This document shows, one piece after another, positions 413 to 6,294 of a stretch of DNA of 6,294 bases. The number at the start of each line of letters is the position of its first letter. The first letter of the stretch is position 1. A program made the position numbers and the translations under genes. The notes beneath the pieces were generated by a model that was given only the letters and a program-made list of their open reading frames with translations, did no database searches and was not told the origin of the DNA. Source of the DNA: a virus (taxonomy: Duplodnaviria; Heunggongvirae; Uroviricota; Caudoviricetes); IMG/VR virus record IMGVR_UViG_3300011952_000016, one strand, 5' to 3'.

Positions 413-2640
413 TTAACCGTCATGCATCATGCTGGCACGGGCGCGCGCACGTTTATCCCGCTCGTATTTTTCGAGCGCATCCTGTAACTGGCGGTCAAGC
501 TGTGTCCCCGGCGCAGTACCACCCGTCAGGCTGATGTGATATTCGTTTTTACTCTGGTCCACATAAGAGCGGCCAGCCGGTGCCGTAACCGGCTGATAAG
601 CCTGATAACCTGCATAAGAGCTGGTCGCCGGAATATAACCACCGGTGCCATACGTGGCGGCATGAGTTCTGGCGGCGGTCTGGTCAAGTGTGTCTGACTC
701 TTTGTTGATAACACCGAGTTTTTCCAGTACCCAGTCAATACCGCTGCGCAGTTTGTTGAACGCATTAAGCGGCAGCATCAGCGCGTCAGCCAGTGCCTGC
801 CCGAACATGACGCCCGTGTCACGGCAACGGTTCAGGGTGTCCTGGGTGGCTTTGACCGGGGCAATCAGGTTTTTAAACCACTGCCACGCGGCCTGTAACT
901 TTTCACCCAGCCAGTTAAACAGCGGCTTAAGTGGCGTGAACAGTTCCCCCACCGGCGCAAATGCCGCTTTCAGCCCTTCAACCACACCGCCAAAGAATGC
1001 GCTGACAGGCTCCCAGTATTTACGGATAAGCAACGCCCCGGCGACAATGGCAGCCACCACGGCCACAACCGGCCAGCTAATCGCACCGATGGCCGTCATA
1101 ACGGCACTACCAACCGTCGTGAAGATTGCCCCCATTGCGCCTGCTGCCGCGATAATGGCATTGATGCCGGTGATAACCGGCCAGGCTACAAGGCCAATGG
1201 CACCGATGACACCAGTCAGCGCCAGTGCACCGCCGGCAATGATGCCGATGGTTGACGCCAGTGATTTGTTTTTCTGTATCCAGCCGTCGAGTTTTAACAC
1301 ATACTTTGTGGCCGTCTGCGTGAGCTTACGCAGTGCGCCTTCCTGCTGGTCAAACAGGTCAGTCCCCACCGCCTCATAAGCGGACTGAAACTCCTTAAAG
1401 TCGCCGCCGAGGTTATCCTGCATGATATTTACCAGCTCGGCGGTCTTCCCGTCTGAGGCTTTAAACGCAGCAGTCAGTTTGTCCAGCTTTCCGGTTGAGG
1501 CGGCAGTCATCAGCACGGCGGCGGCTGAGCTGGCCTCCTCCCCGAAAATAGTTTTCATGTATTCAGCCTGCTGGGCAGTACCGAGCCGGTTTTTCTCAAA
1601 ACTGGCCTGCATTTCTTTCAGAATGGTAAATATTGGTCGGGTATTCCCCTTACTGTCTGAGGTTTTCACGCCAAGCTCTTTGAGTGCATCCCATGCTTTT
1701 CCCGTTGGTGCCTGCAGGCGACTTAACACGGCACGGCTTCCCGTCCCCNNNNNNNNNNNNNNNNNNNNNNNNNNNNNNNNNNNNNNNNNNNNNNNNNNNN
1801 NNNNNNNNNNNNNNNNNNNNNNNNNNNNNNNNNNNNNNNNNNNNNNNNNNNNNNNNNNNNNNGCGCACCGGCTGCATCATCTGCCGAGGCTGCGGTATTG
1901 TCGCCGAGCTGGCGCGCCTGCTTGCGTAGCGCGGCCATTTCGGCGGAGTCTTTTGCCACACCGAGCACAGCCTGCAATTCTGAGTTTTTCTGCGCAAACT
2001 CATAACCGGGCATCAGCAGCTTAACTCCGGCCATCGTTCCCGCAGCTGCAATCCCCACACCGGCAGCGCCCACTGAGGGCATATTTCCGGCCAGTTCCTT
2101 TCCTGCCTGATAACGCTGTTTGACTGCGTTAAGTTTTGCCTGTTGTGCACTGACACGCGCCAGCGCGTCACGCTGACGGTTAAGCTGTGCGGTGGTTTCA
2201 CTGATACGGTTTTTCAGTCCCTGCTCATCATGTGCAAGATTGCGGGTATTAATTCCCACAGCGGCCAGTTCCCGCTGCTGGCGTTTAACGGAATCTGTCA
2301 GGCGGTTATATTTCGCCTGTAAGTCCTCCGCCGCACGCTTTGCGGATTCCAGCACTTTCGCCTGAGCACGGGTCGGACGTTCGGTGTTTTTAAACTGTGT
2401 GGCAAGGGCTTCGGCTTCCTGTCGAGCCTTTTCAAGTGCATGACCAGTCACGGCGAGCTGTGCACTGGTCTTGCGGAATCCCTCAATACGGGATGCGTGA
2501 CCGTTCAGCTCGCGCAGTGATTTTTGTGTTTCCCGGATATCCCCCGACAGCGACTTGCTCGCTGTACGGATGGATTTAAACGGGCGGGATGCCTGGTCAA
2601 CAGCCCTGAGCAATACCTGTAATTTTACATTGTTACTCAT
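413..2640 (-). CDS. T: phage tail tape measure protein (P2 gpT-like), interrupted by a 114-nt N-run
   Basis: ORF 1723..2640 starts MSNNVKLQVLLRAVDQASRPF and is coiled-coil-like and rich in A/Q/R/K. ORF 413..1729 continues with a glycine/alanine-rich hydrophobic segment and the C-terminal part, ending TAA 415-413. The two pieces are separated by N 1749..1862 and are in different frames across it. The ATG at 2640-2638 overlaps the E' stop (ATGAGTAA). Confidence 0.9.
1749..1862. other. run of 114 ambiguous bases (N), a gap or masked segment inside the tape measure gene
   Basis: Directly visible in the sequence. Flanking coding frames differ by one nucleotide, so the N length is not the true length. 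Confidence 1.
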
Positions 2641-3060
2641 TCGTGTTTCCGCTTCGCCGGAGCGCCTTTTCGCGCCATGTGATGAGTTCGGTCAGGCTCA
2701 TGGGATACAGTTCTGATGGCGGCCAGTGAAATATCACTGCCACATCCGCCATCAGGTCATCGACCGAGAGATTTTTCGGAAACGTCACTGCACCGAGTTC
2801 GGCGACAAAAAACCGACCACCTTACCGGCCAGCGCCACAAGGTCAGGCAGCTCCAGCGCGGCGACCTCCTGCTCAGTCAGCATCGGTGCCGTCATGCGCG
2901 GCAGCACTTTAATCAGTGCATCGACTTCGGAGTTTGCGACCGCAGCCAGACTGACACCGCGCAGCGTCCCGGCATTGGGTTTCATCAGCGTGACCTGTTC
3001 GATAACCTGCTCACCACGCTTGACCGGATTGTCCAGGGTAATCACATTTTCTTTGTTCAT
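2633..3060 (-). CDS. E+E': gpE+E' tail assembly chaperone made by programmed -1 ribosomal frameshift (predicted 142 aa)
   Basis: Slippery heptamer T_TTT_TTG at 2812-2806 in the E frame. The -1 frame downstream is open for 57 codons (VAELGAVTFPKNLSVDDLMADVAVIFHWPPSELYPMSLTELITWREKALRRSGNTNE) and ends at TAA 2635-2633, overlapping the tape measure ATG. This is the same arrangement as lambda G/GT and the reported P2 E/E' frameshift. Confidence 0.75.
2785..3060 (-). CDS. E: tail assembly chaperone gpE (91 aa)
   Basis: ORF MNKENVITLDNPVKRGEQVIEQVTLMKPNAGTLRGVSLAAVANSEVDALIKVLPRMTAPMLTEQEVAALELPDLVALAGKVVGFLSPNSVQ with stop TGA 2787-2785. It sits between the tube and tape measure genes, as P2 E does. 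Confidence 0.9.
   Translation of the reverse strand: MNKENVITLDNPVKRGEQVIEQVTLMKPNAGTLRGVSLAAVANSEVDALIKVLPRMTAPMLTEQEVAALELPDLVALAGKVVGFLSPNSVQ
2806..2812 (-). other. -1 programmed frameshift slippery site TTTTTTG (X_XXY_YYZ)
   Basis: Minus-strand sequence GGT TTT TTG TCG at codons 83-86 of E. Classic heptamer 22 nt before the E stop. Confidence 0.75.
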
Positions 3061-3116: not shown

Positions 3117-3685
3117 TCACAGGCCGATATTGCGGCGGTGTTGCTCCAGCCGGTCGACGCCGTTCACCTTCTCAATCATGTTGATGGTGTCGATTTCGAC
3201 CAGCTCCTTACCGTCCATCGTCAGCCGGAAATAGGTGCAGACCACGGAGATTTTCGACTCGGTGTCTTCTCCCTGTTTACCCTCGCCGGTGTCGATTTCT
3301 TTCTGACGTCCACGCATGACCACTTCAACGGCCACCGTTTCGCCGGTATCGTCGCGCTGGTAAGAGCCGGTAAAGCGCAGCGGCACGGCAGTCGCACCCC
3401 ACTGCGTAAGCACCAGGTCATCNNNNNNNNNNGTACGGCATCCACACCGGTTGCGGCGTAAAGCTCCCAGATAACCGAATCCGGGAAGCCCCCGAGCGAC
3501 CACTCCATTGACAGCGCATCGTCATCAAGGCCGAGATCTACCGGGGCGCTGCCGTTCATCCCCGCACCGCGATAGTTTTCGAGCTTACGGGTCAGTTTTG
3601 GCAGCGTGACGGACTTTGCAACGCCCTGATAGCTGTAGCCGTTCAGAAAGACGTTCATTAACTTGAGTTTGCGCGGCATTGCCAT
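3117..3685 (-). CDS. FII: major tail tube protein (P2 FII-like), interrupted by a 10-nt N-run
   Basis: ATG 3685-3683 is preceded by GGAG overlapping the FI stop. The N-terminal 84 aa are MAMPRKLKLMNVFLNGYSYQGVAKSVTLPKLTRKLENYRGAGMNGSAPVDLGLDDDALSMEWSLGGFPDSVIWELYAATGVDAV. The C-terminal 101 aa (DDLVLTQWGATAVPLRFTGSYQRDDTGETVAVEVV...VDRLEQHRRNIGL) follow the N-run in another frame, ending TGA 3119-3117. Confidence 0.9.
3423..3432. other. run of 10 ambiguous bases (N) inside the tail tube gene
   Basis: Directly visible. The frame is not preserved across it (one base more or less would join the two halves). Confidence 1.
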
Positions 3686-3697
3686 CGGTCAGGCTCC

Positions 3698-4760
3698 TTA
3701 ATTGCTGTTAACCGAGGTGACCAGATTTGCCAGGTATTTATCGGTAATACGCTGGCGCAGGGTCAGGTTTTCAAGAGGAGGCACCGGGGTATAGTCGTTG
3801 AGGGTTTCCGCATCGTTGGATCCTTCGCTGAACCAGCAGGTCGCATCCACGATATAGCCGTTTGTTTTCAGCTCACGGAATTTGGCATTGATGCCGTCAA
3901 CGATGTCGCGAATCAGCGTTGCGGTGATGGGCTTGTCCACCGCCCACATGTGCGCCTCAGCCATCGTGTCGGCCAGCACCTGCGCGGTGCGGGTGTAGTT
4001 TTCAAAGAGGAACAGCGGGTCATCAGAGCAGGTACGGTTACCCCAGAAGCGGAAACCGTCGCGGCGAATCAGCGTAGTGACGCCTGACTCGTTAAGCAAG
4101 TCAGCATCGGTGCCGGACTCCTGCAAATCCCAGAATACAGAGGCGCTGATGCCGGTAACACCGTTCACCCCGACATTGGACAGCGTTTTATGCCAGCCCT
4201 GCTCCTGGTCGATTTTAGCGCGCAGCCCCAGTGCACGGGCGGTGGCATACGCGGTGACGGTGGTACTGGTGACCGTATCCCATGCGAGGAAATCCGGCCA
4301 GATGACCATCAGCTCACGCTGGCTGAAATTCTGGCGGTAGGCTTTCACCTCGGAAATGGTCTTACAGCCCCATGCGCTGATATATCCGAAAGCGCGCAGC
4401 TTCTGACAGACTGATGCCAGTGCAACAGCCACCTCTTTGGTATCCAGCCCCGGCACACCAAGAATACGCGGTTTAACACCGGTCGTCGCCGGTGCCGTCT
4501 TCCACACGTACGACAACGGTGACCGGTTTTGACTGGTCGGAGATGGCCTGCAACGATGCCGCCAGCGTGCCTTTTTTACCGGCCTTTGCAATTGCGCTCT
4601 GCACATTGGTAATCAGTACCGGTTTATTGAGGGGGAAGGTTTCGACATCCGCATCGCTGGCCGTACAGACCATGCCGACAATGGCCGTGGATACGGTGGA
4701 AATGACGCGGGTGCCGTCGTTAATCTCCAGCACCTGCACGCCGTGATGATAGTCACTCAT
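3698..4760 (-). pseudogene. FI: tail sheath protein (P2 FI-like) with a disrupted reading frame (apparent out-of-frame internal deletion)
   Basis: ORF 4473..4760 encodes the sheath N-terminus [38 protein letters not shown]...[10 protein letters not shown], then RC and a stop (TAA 4475-4473). The remainder ([40 protein letters not shown] ... [14 protein letters not shown], stop TAA 3700-3698) is in a second frame beginning at about 4477. The total span is 1063 nt, which is not a multiple of 3. RBS GGAG at 4772-4769. Confidence 0.8.
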
Positions 4761-4792
4761 CCGTTTAACTCCGTGGTTAATGGGTGAGTGGT

Positions 4793-4845
4793 ATTTTCAG
4801 TTGTGCCGGAGATGTCAGGCTATTTGTCCCGGTTGGCTAATCAAC
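4793..4845 (-). promoter_or_regulatory. putative late promoter for the FI-FII-E-T-U operon (P2 P_F equivalent): imperfect dyad GTTGATTAGCCAAC plus a -10-like GAAAAT
   Basis: Dyad at 4845-4832 lies about 50-55 nt upstream of a -10-like hexamer GAAAAT (4798-4793), which is about 33 nt upstream of the FI ATG. This geometry resembles activator-dependent P2 late promoters (element centred near -55). An exact TGT-N12-ACA match was not found. Confidence 0.3.
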
Positions 4846-4860
4846 AGCACAACCACCGGG

Positions 4861-4886
4861 AAAGAAAACGCGGGCAATCAGCCCGC
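4861..4886 (-). terminator. rho-independent terminator after the tail fibre assembly gene (end of the fibre operon)
   Basis: On the minus strand: GCGGGC-TGATT-GCCCGC hairpin (4886-4870) immediately followed by GTTTTCTTT (4869-4861), starting 6 nt after the Tfa stop (TAA 4895-4893). Confidence 0.7.
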
Positions 4887-4892
4887 CTGTGT

Positions 4893-5471
4893 TTATTGCG
4901 GTAGTTCCGGCCATTCAATATCCGGGGCATTTTCCGGCTGAACGCGATTCAGTAGCACACGGTATTTTTTCCAGTGTGTCAGGCTTAACTTTTCTTCCTC
5001 GGTAGCCATATCTAAATCGACAGCATCCTGCAGCGTGGCAATAATTTCACCTGCATATGCAATCTGCTCTTTCTTCTGAGACTCCGCCGCTCTGACAAGC
5101 GCATCACGTTCTGCATTCTCATCATTCACCCACGCATTTCCGTCCCATTTCTGATAATCCCCCTCCGGGGAAATAGCTGTCACGTCTGGAGGTAATACGC
5201 CAAGTTCAGAAATATAAATGGCTGCTCCTGTTTTCGTTTCGTAGACGGTCTTTCCGCGATGGTCTTCCATCAGTTCCCATTTCATTTCATCTGCATTGAA
5301 AACGGCTGCATAACCAGCAGGAATATCAGGTGGTGCAATATCTGTACTGTTTGCAGGCAGGCCAGTATACGGCGGAATATATGCATCACTTTCGCCAATA
5401 AACTCATTGGTTCCATTAAGTAAATTGAAAGCGCGGATAGTTTGTGCTTCTGCACTCATTCTGAAAGCCAT
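4893..5471 (-). CDS. tfa: tail fibre assembly chaperone (Tfa; P2 gene G equivalent)
   Basis: 192-aa [81 protein letters not shown]... with the conserved Tfa N-terminal region. Its ATG shares a base with the tail fibre stop (TAATG at 5473-5469). Confidence 0.9.
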
Positions 5472-6294
5472 TATGCAAGCCTCACAATATAGTTAAATGC
5501 GATGTTTTTGACGGTGTTTTCTGTATTACCTGTAGCATTAACGGTAATAGAGTGCCCGTGTGAGCCAATAGCAACCGTGTGTGAATGTGCACCAATACCA
5601 ACCGTATGATTATGTGCACCAATATCTACCGTGTGGGCATGATTCCCGGCAGCTCCTGATGTGCCATTAAACGATGGGTTGTCAAAGCCTGTTTTATTAG
5701 TATTGGCATTCCCTCTGTAAATGGTATGTGTATGGTTACCAGTGGTATTAGTGGTTTTTGTTCCGTAGTTAAACGTACTGACTGTCTTCGTCCCGTAATC
5801 AAACGAACTGGTTGTTTTCGTTCCCAAATCCGTATTTGACGCACTGGCGCTGTGAGTATGCGATTTAATCCCGTCCTGTTCCTGTGACAATACAGCACGC
5901 CCACTGGCGGGTTTGCCCTTGATTGTCCAACCGCGCATATCCGGAATAACACCAGAAGGATAGGCTATAGCCAGTTTCGGATATGCTGCCTTATCAAACG
6001 TCTGCCCCTGCATAATTGCATAGCCTGCAGGTGGTGTATCTGATGGCCACGGCAGCGGAACACCTGGCGGAAACGCTTCAATATTTGCCGAGCCGTCAAA
6101 TTTTACGCCGTTAATTGTCCTTGCTGTTTTCAGCTTTGTTGCTGTAGCCGCATTGCCGGACAGTTCGCCTGAAAGACCACCGCTGAATGTCTGTTTCGCC
6201 GCCCATGTCTGAGCTTCGTCAATAATTGGCACACGTCTTGTCGTGATCGTGCGGCTTCCCGGATTTCCTGAAATACGCACCATAAAAAAGCGGT
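5471..6294 (-). CDS. tail fibre protein, C-terminal (distal, receptor-binding) part; 5' end probably beyond the window
   Basis: Frame is open from the window edge (no stop in 6294-6284). The first ATG (6283) has no obvious RBS (T6 run upstream). Contains the fibre motif [21 protein letters not shown], a collar-like segment ([37 protein letters not shown]), GTKT repeats and HxH repeats. Stop TAA 5473-5471. Confidence 0.85.
5540..5647 (-). repeat. four tandem imperfect 27-bp repeats encoding 9-aa HxH units (GNHAHTVDI / GAHNHTVGI / GAHSHTVAI / GSHGHSITV) in the tail fibre tip
   Basis: Verified by codon-by-codon translation of 5647-5540. HxH repeats of this kind coordinate metal ions in the T4 long and short tail fibre tips. 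Confidence 0.85.
5735..5824 (-). repeat. three tandem imperfect 30-bp repeats encoding GTKT-type 10-aa units ([10 protein letters not shown] / [10 protein letters not shown] / [10 protein letters not shown]) in the tail fibre
   Basis: Translation of 5824-5735. The nucleotide periodicity is visible directly. Confidence 0.75.

Follow-up and report, generated by a model that had tools for sequence, protein, structure and literature searches.

The question raised by IMG/VR virus record IMGVR_UViG_3300011952_000016 concerns the end of its tail fibre gene, where an AT-rich, repeat-bearing segment stands at positions 5474-5870: what this segment is, where the limits of its exchange lie and how far its repeats vary. 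The window, that is, the whole stretch of DNA analysed here, comprises 6,294 nucleotides (nt) from a virus of the Caudoviricetes. The segment represents the last ~132 codons of a P2-type tail fibre in a minus-strand reading, and tfa, the gene of the fibre chaperone, lies directly downstream. It is very probably the needle of a receptor-binding tip of the lambda Stf/T4 gp37 type, grafted on a P2-type (gpH-like) fibre and exchanged as part of nested units. A reading made from the letters alone (the sequence-only reading) had proposed that tip and tfa were acquired together from a different lineage. Its finding is real and its interpretation was partly right. What it describes is textbook tail-fibre mosaicism of an already known kind, because freely swapped host-range modules are well known and near-identical genes are annotated in RefSeq and in Peduovirus P24A7b.

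Domain map of the fibre end and its chaperone

All long open reading frames (ORFs) of the window lie on the minus strand and constitute a P2-like tail gene block. The domains of the fibre ORF were set by alignment to the limits published for T4 gp37, namely D10 collar 811-881 and 1010-1026, stem 882-931 and 960-1009, and tip 932-959 (PMC6957217). The features of the fibre end and of tfa are the following, with amino acids (aa) numbered along the fibre fragment.

From 5471, open to the window edge at 6294, minus strand: fibre ORF, C-terminal end of a gpH-type fibre
6080-6294, minus strand: distal shaft fragment, P2-type (aa 1-71), ending in the conserved linker; the ORF continues past the window
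5864-6079, minus strand: collar (knob D10; aa 72-143), 76% identical to T4 gp37 811-881
5726-5863, minus strand: ascending stem (aa 144-189), 63% identical to T4 gp37 882-931
5852-5860 and 5726-5734, minus strand: HxH-1 and HxH-2 of the ascending stem
5795-5824, 5765-5794 and 5735-5764, minus strand: three 10-aa GTK units (30-bp repeat) of the ascending stem
5660-5725, minus strand: head ("tip" subdomain), hypervariable cassette (aa 190-211), 23% identical to T4 932-959 and effectively unrelated
5525-5659, minus strand: descending stem (aa 212-256), 73% identical to T4 gp37 960-1009
5633-5641, 5606-5614, 5579-5587 and 5552-5560, minus strand: HxH motifs of the descending stem
5621-5647, 5594-5620, 5567-5593 and 5540-5566, minus strand: four contiguous 9-aa GxHxH units (27-bp repeat) of the descending stem
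5474-5524, minus strand: C-terminal strand returning to the collar, 17/17 identical to T4 gp37 1010-1026
4893-5471, minus strand: tfa, a 192-aa ORF directly downstream of the fibre gene
5172-5471, minus strand: Tfa N-domain (~aa 1-100), which co-varies with tip type
4896-5171, minus strand: Tfa C-domain, the generic Caudo_TAP part

The assignment is carried by a match of aa 58-273 to the crystal structure of the T4 gp37 receptor-binding tip (2XGF, E=4.7e-77). Moreover, the Pfam domain Collar (PF07484) is found at aa 77-124 with 6e-11 and 42.6 bits against a cutoff of 24, and the C-terminal strand shares 94% nt identity with lambda stf. NCBIfam gave no match for the fibre fragment or for Tfa. 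The fibre stop codon (5471-5473) overlaps the tfa start codon by 1 nt. On this alignment, 5474-5870 corresponds almost exactly to domain D11, the needle, together with the closing strand.

The HxH motifs, six in the window (two ascending, four descending), number seven in T4 and eight in lambda Stf. In an alignment of 61 homologues, all 12 histidines of the six motifs are invariant, and so is the preceding glycine at five of the six. The recognition of these repeats as a T4-type fibre-tip motif was correct, and metal binding is predicted by homology. In T4, seven iron atoms are coordinated by His triplets, and lipopolysaccharide and OmpC are bound by the tip subdomain (PMC6957217).

The fold suggested by these parts is an up-and-down needle. 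The chain would leave the collar as the ascending stem, with three GTK units between two HxH motifs, pass through a small head of 22-26 residues and come back as a descending stem of four GxHxHTVxI units, after which the last strand would re-enter the collar. In the putative homotrimer, each HxH level would form one octahedral metal site of six histidines, occupied by iron in T4, so that six sites are predicted here compared with seven in T4. The head insert, sited between the stems and hypervariable across homologues, is the predicted receptor-contacting and host-range-determining part.

The chaperone belongs to Pfam family Caudo_TAP (PF02413, 3.3e-40), and its 192 aa fall within the family size of ~175-195 aa; its aa 64-192 match Mu TfaU (5YVQ, 2.9e-10). 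Overall identity is ~65% to lambda Tfa, the closest type, and ~28% to T4 gp38. For the N- and C-domains separately, identity amounts to 70% and 59% with lambda Tfa, which accompanies the same tip type, 31% and 24% with T4 gp38, and 19% and 39% with the Tfa of Peduovirus P24C9, which accompanies another tip. An N-domain that is close to lambda Tfa and distant from P24C9 Tfa thus tracks tip type, consistent with the description of Tfa proteins as having a variable N-domain that binds the fibre and a conserved C-domain that trimerises (PMC9608196). By analogy, the Tfa of the window probably drives folding of the fibre, with the N-domain acting on the tip and the C-domain trimerising.

Some carriers of this tip have a 289-aa gene between the fibre gene and tfa (L008 1698-2567; L010 2061-2930). 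In L008 it encodes a Macro-domain protein, and in phage Chuche (L010) its product bears no annotation beyond hypothetical. A Macro-domain annotation beside tail-fibre genes is also found in Gifsy-1 and in a ~101-kb E. coli plasmid.

Seams, composition and units of exchange

The upstream part of the fibre and its tip have different nearest relatives. Relatives of the shaft are Peduoviruses with other tips, whereas those of the tip are lambda Stf and T-even gp37. Over aa 1-78, the fragment is 81-82% identical to Peduovirus P24C9 and Yersinia phage vB_YpM_22, and P24C9 carries a tip unrelated to that of the window after the shared linker. Homology to lambda Stf (~53% identical) and to T4-type gp37 (55-65% identical) begins in the linker region. 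The upstream mosaic junction therefore lies at ~6095-6123, at the conserved GNAATATKL...FDG linker, and not at 5870, which the sequence-only reading had taken as the module boundary.

The shaft fragment is itself mosaic (window 6170-6292). Its aa 1-41 are ~58% identical to the distal long tail fibre subunit of several T-even-type phages, and its aa 10-71 are 58% identical to the invertible Sv' segment of P1 gene S. A further mosaic layer is seen in the fibre middle, which differs between two E. coli prophages with a common tip. In the full-length fibres of L001 and L002, this middle (codons ~240-500, outside the window) contains three ~90-residue repeats (GVLEV...GTQRYT.R.GN.Y.R...W..W).

Recurrent exchange points were located by scoring the end points of partial megablast matches to the fibre and tfa of the window in 5,426 E. 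coli genomes, 3,672 of which have some match to 4893-6294. Matches end repeatedly at ~6111 and 6123, at ~5748 and 5787 in or beside the GTK array, at ~5608-5620 in the HxH array, at 5296 and 5109 within tfa, and at 4893, the end of tfa. The block shared most commonly is 5296-5620, which comprises the Tfa N-terminus and the fibre 3' end and is ~81% identical to the stfR-tfaR/tfaQ genes of Rac and Qin.

A smaller unit emerges from metagenomic contig L007, which is 96-97% identical to the window over 4915-6294 (Tfa 93-96%) except at ~5640-5725, ~90 nt in which identity falls to the random level. This is a clean replacement of the head cassette with the chaperone kept, and its limits are HxH-2 of the ascending stem and the first HxH motif of the descending stem. 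Among homologues with six HxH motifs, at least about ten unrelated heads and at least eight shaft contexts occur, while the stems are conserved. Conversely, the head of the window is found on unrelated shafts in P0001/L008 and phage Chuche, as well as in Felixounavirus JLBYU28, a phage isolated on MG1655, where it is accompanied by a different collar, a T4-like stem and no tfa annotated beside the fibre gene. The ~90-nt cassette between the repeat arrays is thus the smallest and most active exchange unit. These observations divide the earlier proposal that tip and tfa were acquired as a unit: the module is indeed shared with unrelated phages, and yet heads are swapped without Tfa.

Two nested units of exchange are proposed. 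The larger one would consist of collar, needle and Tfa N-domain, joined to the P2 shaft at the linker, and the smaller one of the head cassette alone, with an HxH motif on each side and moved independently of Tfa. Both would be transferred by homologous recombination at their conserved flanks. Such recombination has been demonstrated experimentally for lambda, which recombines with the stf-tfa homology regions of Rac and Qin at ~2e-6, largely in a Red-beta-dependent manner when the sequences are diverged (PMC3945230).

Beyond chromosomes and phages, tips and Tfa genes ~74% nt identical to those of the window are found on E. coli plasmids of ~87-106 kb, among them NZ_CP074731.1, NZ_CP021340.1 and NZ_CP074968.1 (87-99 kb), and the E. 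coli genome searches placed tip/Tfa matches at 112-157 plasmid sites. The carriers are presumably phage-plasmids, so that the module would circulate there too.

As to base composition, the AT-richness of the tip was rightly noticed: over non-overlapping 60-nt samples, mean GC is 43.1% for 5474-5870 (range 35-50%) against 51.7% for 5871-6294 (48-57%), 46.3% for tfa, 55.8% for the tape measure gene (43-67%) and 56.9% for the sheath, tube and E genes. GC over 5474-5872 is 43.6%, and the tip differs from the remaining tail genes (Mann-Whitney p=4e-4). Composition is therefore not uniform, but the comparators first given were too high, as the 57% quoted for the upstream fibre is its maximum and the 63% quoted for the tape measure gene lies above the mean of that gene.

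The position of the step within codons is informative. At third positions (GC3), the tip and the upstream fibre fragment are alike, at 0.39 vs 0.44 (Fisher p=0.46); at positions 1+2, GC is 46% in the tip vs 56% in the upstream fibre (p=0.026). Since the drop at ~5870 is confined to positions 1+2, it reflects the Thr/Asn/His/Ile/Gly-rich composition of the needle and not a change in codon usage. In tfa, GC3 is 0.31 in the first 100 codons and 0.48 in the remainder, and in the core tail genes it reaches 0.62-0.70. The tip and the upstream fibre are far lower than this core (p<1e-5), and each of the distal fibre and tfa segments falls below it (all p<=2e-3). The low-GC3 block spans at least 6292 to mid-tfa, that is, to the end of the Tfa N-domain, and because GC3 is equally low throughout, 5870 is a protein-domain boundary and not a transfer boundary.

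In full-length relatives, fibre GC3 is 0.55-0.65 over the first ~200 codons, which serve baseplate attachment, mostly 0.35-0.55 in the middle, 0.70 in an island at codons 500-560, and 0.25-0.50 from codon ~580 through the Tfa N-domain. The unrelated tip of P24C9 is just as low (0.38), so low GC3 characterises the distal fibre of these phages generally.

These figures bear on the idea that 5474-5870 is itself a recent import, taken up together with tfa from a lineage rich in AT, for instance a T-even phage, with its edge at the GC step and with contingency-like repeats. In its favour are the confirmed GC drop and repeats, the homologous tips of T4-type phages and the single 27-bp deletion allele. 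Nevertheless, GC3 is flat at 5870, the mosaic junctions lie at ~6095-6123 and around 5640-5725, and repeat number is near-constant in relatives, with units just 77-81% alike. The T4 tip is also richer in GC than the rest of its gene (GC3 0.33 vs 0.25 in the remainder of g37), and, where residues are conserved, T4 and the window agree at 28-53% of third positions, near saturation, with most synonymous sites different. Earlier work, as summarised in PMC3157838, has the g37 C-terminus and g38 of T4 coming from a lambda-like phage. Taken together, the T4 tip composition, the third-position divergence and this earlier work mean that AT-richness is no evidence for a T-even origin, which was rejected as its source, and a recent import of this kind is quite improbable.

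The opposite idea, that no horizontal transfer took place and that low GC and repeats stem only from the amino-acid composition and periodicity of a native P2 tip, draws on two of the same facts: the difference between tip and upstream fibre is carried by codon positions 1+2, and the repeats, as layers of the structure, are also conserved in T4 and lambda. It fails to accommodate a GC3 of 0.31-0.44 in the distal fibre and Tfa N-domain against the core genes, closely related Peduovirus fibres that bear unrelated tips past the same linker, or the occurrence of this tip and head in lambdoid-like phages and a Felixounavirus whose shafts are unrelated. It therefore retains hardly any credibility, and the grafted needle with nested exchange units is the preferred reading.

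Tandem repeats and the length of the needle

Both repeat families noted in the sequence-only reading were confirmed by Tandem Repeats Finder (TRF), which reported a 27-bp unit present 2.6 times at 5565-5635 (81% matches, score 93) and a 30-bp unit present 2.0 times at 5763-5821 (79% matches, score 76). The top score in 300 codon shuffles of the fibre fragment was 56, and none of the 300 reached the observed scores. To call the tip built from these repeats was an overstatement, as the GTK and HxH arrays cover about half of its 397 nt. Individual units are 77-81% alike, and the longest perfect direct repeat in the region has 13 nt.

5585-5597 and 5612-5624: two copies of the 13-nt perfect direct repeat ATGTGCACCAATA in the descending stem

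The array of lambda consists of three GTK units and four contiguous 9-aa HxH units, as in the window, and that of T4 has two GTK units and a first HxH spacing of 14 residues. Units 3 and 4 of the 27-bp array of the window are alike at 22 of 27 positions, and the same units match their lambda and T4 counterparts at 20-23 of 27. The arrays are old and structural, each unit being a layer of the needle. In the proposed mechanism, the tandem repeats would serve mainly as structure and double as recombination flanks, becoming substrates of slippage only rarely. In T4, duplications in gp37 have reportedly expanded the host range (Tetart et al. 1996).

The lengths of the two stems are tightly coordinated. 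Across 119 homologues, ascending and descending stem lengths co-vary (r=0.96) and fall into discrete matched classes:

(45,30): 104 sequences, window type
(49,35): 7 sequences, T4 type
(55,39): 2 sequences, Serratia and Hafnia
(59,44): 5 sequences, lambda type

The (55,39) proteins carry an additional GTK-type unit together with an additional 9-aa HxH unit. Because the classes are matched, unit number changes on both stems together, as expected of an up-and-down needle.

Repeat number is nearly fixed among close relatives. Four contiguous 27-bp units are present in 64 of 65 E. coli genomes, in all 11 IMG/VR contigs and all three metagenome contigs, and in the one matching GTDB representative genome, that of Escherichia ruysiae. 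The exception is E. coli NZ_OZ040555.1, whose tip equals that of the window (2 mismatches in 427 nt) except for the precise loss of one 27-bp unit (IGAHNHTVG). This deletion lies between the 13-nt perfect repeat copies, as slipped-strand mispairing or unequal exchange would predict, and it is therefore a real example of slippage. The suggestion that slippage drives variation in repeat number is borne out to this extent: slippage occurs but is rare, with one case in ~80 close relatives. A five-unit (duplication) allele of the 27-bp array was absent from the IMG/VR scan, the E. coli genome collection not having been screened for duplications. The loss of one unit in NZ_OZ040555.1 is expected to impair folding, because the ascending stem is uncompensated.

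A contingency locus, in which repeat number is switched by slipped-strand events, was considered and rejected, as ~80 relatives hold a single deletion allele and the units are only 77-81% alike.

A more speculative idea, unlikely as it stands, is that needle length is quantised by paired gain or loss, either of a ~10-aa GTK-type unit on the ascending stem with a 9-aa HxH unit on the descending one, or of a ~14-aa HxH spacer unit on each stem. Were it true, the unpaired three-unit allele of NZ_OZ040555.1 would be either a short-lived defective intermediate or a working needle minus one metal site. Such changes of needle length, head-cassette swaps and small insertions or deletions in the head loop, of which the private GETG deletion of the window is an example, would then be three separate ways of varying reach and specificity.

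State of this copy, gene context and comparison with known systems

The window differs from the P2-like prophage of E. coli 5-1 by 8 substitutions in 1,403 nt and one insertion-deletion difference: its head is without the 12 bp GGTGAAACCGGT (GETG) at 5695/5696. The deletion is in-frame, lies between the arrays and has 1 nt of microhomology. Every other carrier of the head keeps GETG or SETG, and the deletion junction had no match in the 5,426 E. coli genomes, the GTDB representatives, the metagenome contigs or IMG/VR. Elsewhere in the window, comparison with E. coli relatives shows two deletions in the sheath gene, one of 104 bp at ~4481 that shifts the frame and one of 24 bp at ~3797 that preserves it. 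Runs of N occupy 1749-1862 in the tape measure gene and 3423-3432, and they resemble gaps left by scaffolding, or masked sequence. A 50-nt stretch of the tube gene (3385-3434), with the second N-run inside it, has no counterpart in relatives.

These features lend themselves to the view that the copy is a decaying remnant whose tip is non-functional in this genome, the private 12-bp deletion being degradation or an assembly error. The split sheath gene, the N-runs, the anomalous tube-gene insert and a junction found in none of four collections all fit it. On the other hand, both the fibre gene and tfa keep intact frames, the 12-bp deletion preserves the frame and affects a surface loop whose length varies across the family (heads 28-45), and substitutions relative to the intact E. 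coli prophage number no more than those 8 in 1,403 nt. Decay is a serious possibility, though the less probable one, and it concerns the state of this copy, not the identity of the element.

Several points weigh against the grafted, exchangeable needle as set out above. An AlphaFold2 monomer of the 216-residue tip, based on the 61-sequence alignment, was poor (predicted local distance difference test score 60, predicted template-modelling score 0.23), and such low values are expected because an intertwined trimer was modelled as a monomer. No similarity was detected between the head and the T4 tip subdomain, which leaves no basis for deducing the receptor. For this locus, homologous recombination is a conclusion drawn from the breakpoints and from the published lambda experiments. 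Finally, the private loss of GETG, the sheath deletions and the tube insert mean that this copy may be decaying or poorly assembled; the prophage may be defective and may make no working fibre.

The gene context is compatible with a P2-type fibre. The other genes and elements of the window are the following.

4870-4886, minus strand: terminator-like GC hairpin with a T-run, 7 nt past the tfa stop
3698-4760, minus strand: sheath gene, in two ORFs (3698-4606 and 4473-4760)
~3117-3685, minus strand: tube gene
2633-3060, minus strand: E/E'
413-2640, minus strand: tape measure gene, with an N-run inside

Within the window, the order fibre-tfa-sheath-tube-E/E'-tape measure fits a P2-type baseplate fibre; the fibre N-terminus and I/J/W/V lie outside and are found in relatives of 96-99% identity. 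The full context is seen in E. coli chromosomal relatives that are 96-98.6% identical and run V-W-J-I, an 872-aa fibre, Tfa, sheath, tube, E and tape measure. With the hairpin at 4870-4886 the fibre operon ends, and the module has its right-hand limit there; the 98.6% match to E. coli 5-1 reaches as far as 4892.

The spacer between tfa and sheath (4761-4892), only ~130 nt in the window, is a cargo hot spot in relatives. It holds an IS3 fragment and a 359-aa hypothetical gene in E. coli 5-1, three small ORFs in P24A7b, NUDIX and HAD hydrolase genes in P24C9, and a gene for a RES-domain protein in L007.

At the E/E' position, a 91-aa ORF (2785-3060) and a 51-aa ORF (2633-2788) overlap by 4 nt, and their counterparts in relatives are annotated as "phage tail assembly protein" and "GpE family phage tail protein". 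This is presumably the arrangement expected of the P2 E/E+E' tail chaperone pair produced by programmed frameshifting.

The practical significance of the module is that it would determine the range of bacteria open to attachment by a P2-like phage or by a tailocin derived from such a phage. The linker at ~6095-6123, the two HxH motifs flanking the head and the linked Tfa N-domain constitute a map of exchange units and thus possible cut points for retargeting P2-type or R-type-pyocin-like particles, in which the head might be changed with the same chaperone.

Fibre-tip sharing among P2, lambda, T4, P1 and Mu has reportedly been described since 1992 (Haggard-Ljungquist et al.). To the picture held since the early 1990s, the present analysis adds only detail, namely stem lengths that change in pairs and a single naturally occurring allele of slippage. 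Needle tips of the gp37-like kind are routinely noted across phage taxa (PMC11990801).

By every criterion that could be tested, the element is a member of the T4 gp37/lambda Stf needle-tip family, with a Tfa chaperone and a P2-type fibre as its mount. Among known systems, the nearest are P2-like. The prophage of E. coli 5-1 (WP_106474431.1), 98.6% identical in nt over 4892-6294, has essentially the same gene pair. Peduovirus P24A7b shares 94% protein identity in the fibre and 96% in Tfa and has the like order V-W-J-I-H-G, sheath, tube, E, T. Compared with both, the window is without GETG, has a disrupted sheath gene and carries no cargo between tfa and sheath.

The collar-needle-Tfa module is common to the window, lambda Stf/Tfa (Ur-lambda) and the Rac/Qin stfR-tfaR/tfaQ genes of E. 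coli K-12. The lambda collar is 82% and its ascending stem 80% identical to those of the window, and the overlap of fibre stop and tfa start is alike. Lambda Stf has eight HxH motifs, with ~45 residues between those flanking the head compared with 28 in the window. It is also the side fibre of a siphovirus, whereas the window encodes the baseplate fibre of a myovirus, and shaft and virion attachment differ.

The resemblance to T4 gp37 (2XGF) and gp38 extends to the collar, the up-and-down HxH needle, the identical 17-residue C-terminal strand and a chaperone gene directly downstream, with about 60% identity over ~200 residues of gp37. The window differs from T4 in having six HxH motifs instead of seven, three GTK units instead of two, stems of 46 + 45 instead of 50 + 50 residues, and a head of 22 instead of 28 residues without sequence similarity. 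Its tip is carried by a P2-type shaft and baseplate adaptor, whereas that of T4 is carried by the T-even distal half-fibre, and its chaperone is only ~28% identical to gp38. Finally, Mu TfaU (5YVQ) and the Caudo_TAP family share with the window Tfa the two-domain layout of a variable N-domain and a conserved C-domain. The N-domain of the window Tfa follows the lambda Tfa type and corresponds to the needle tip, not to the Mu fibre tip.

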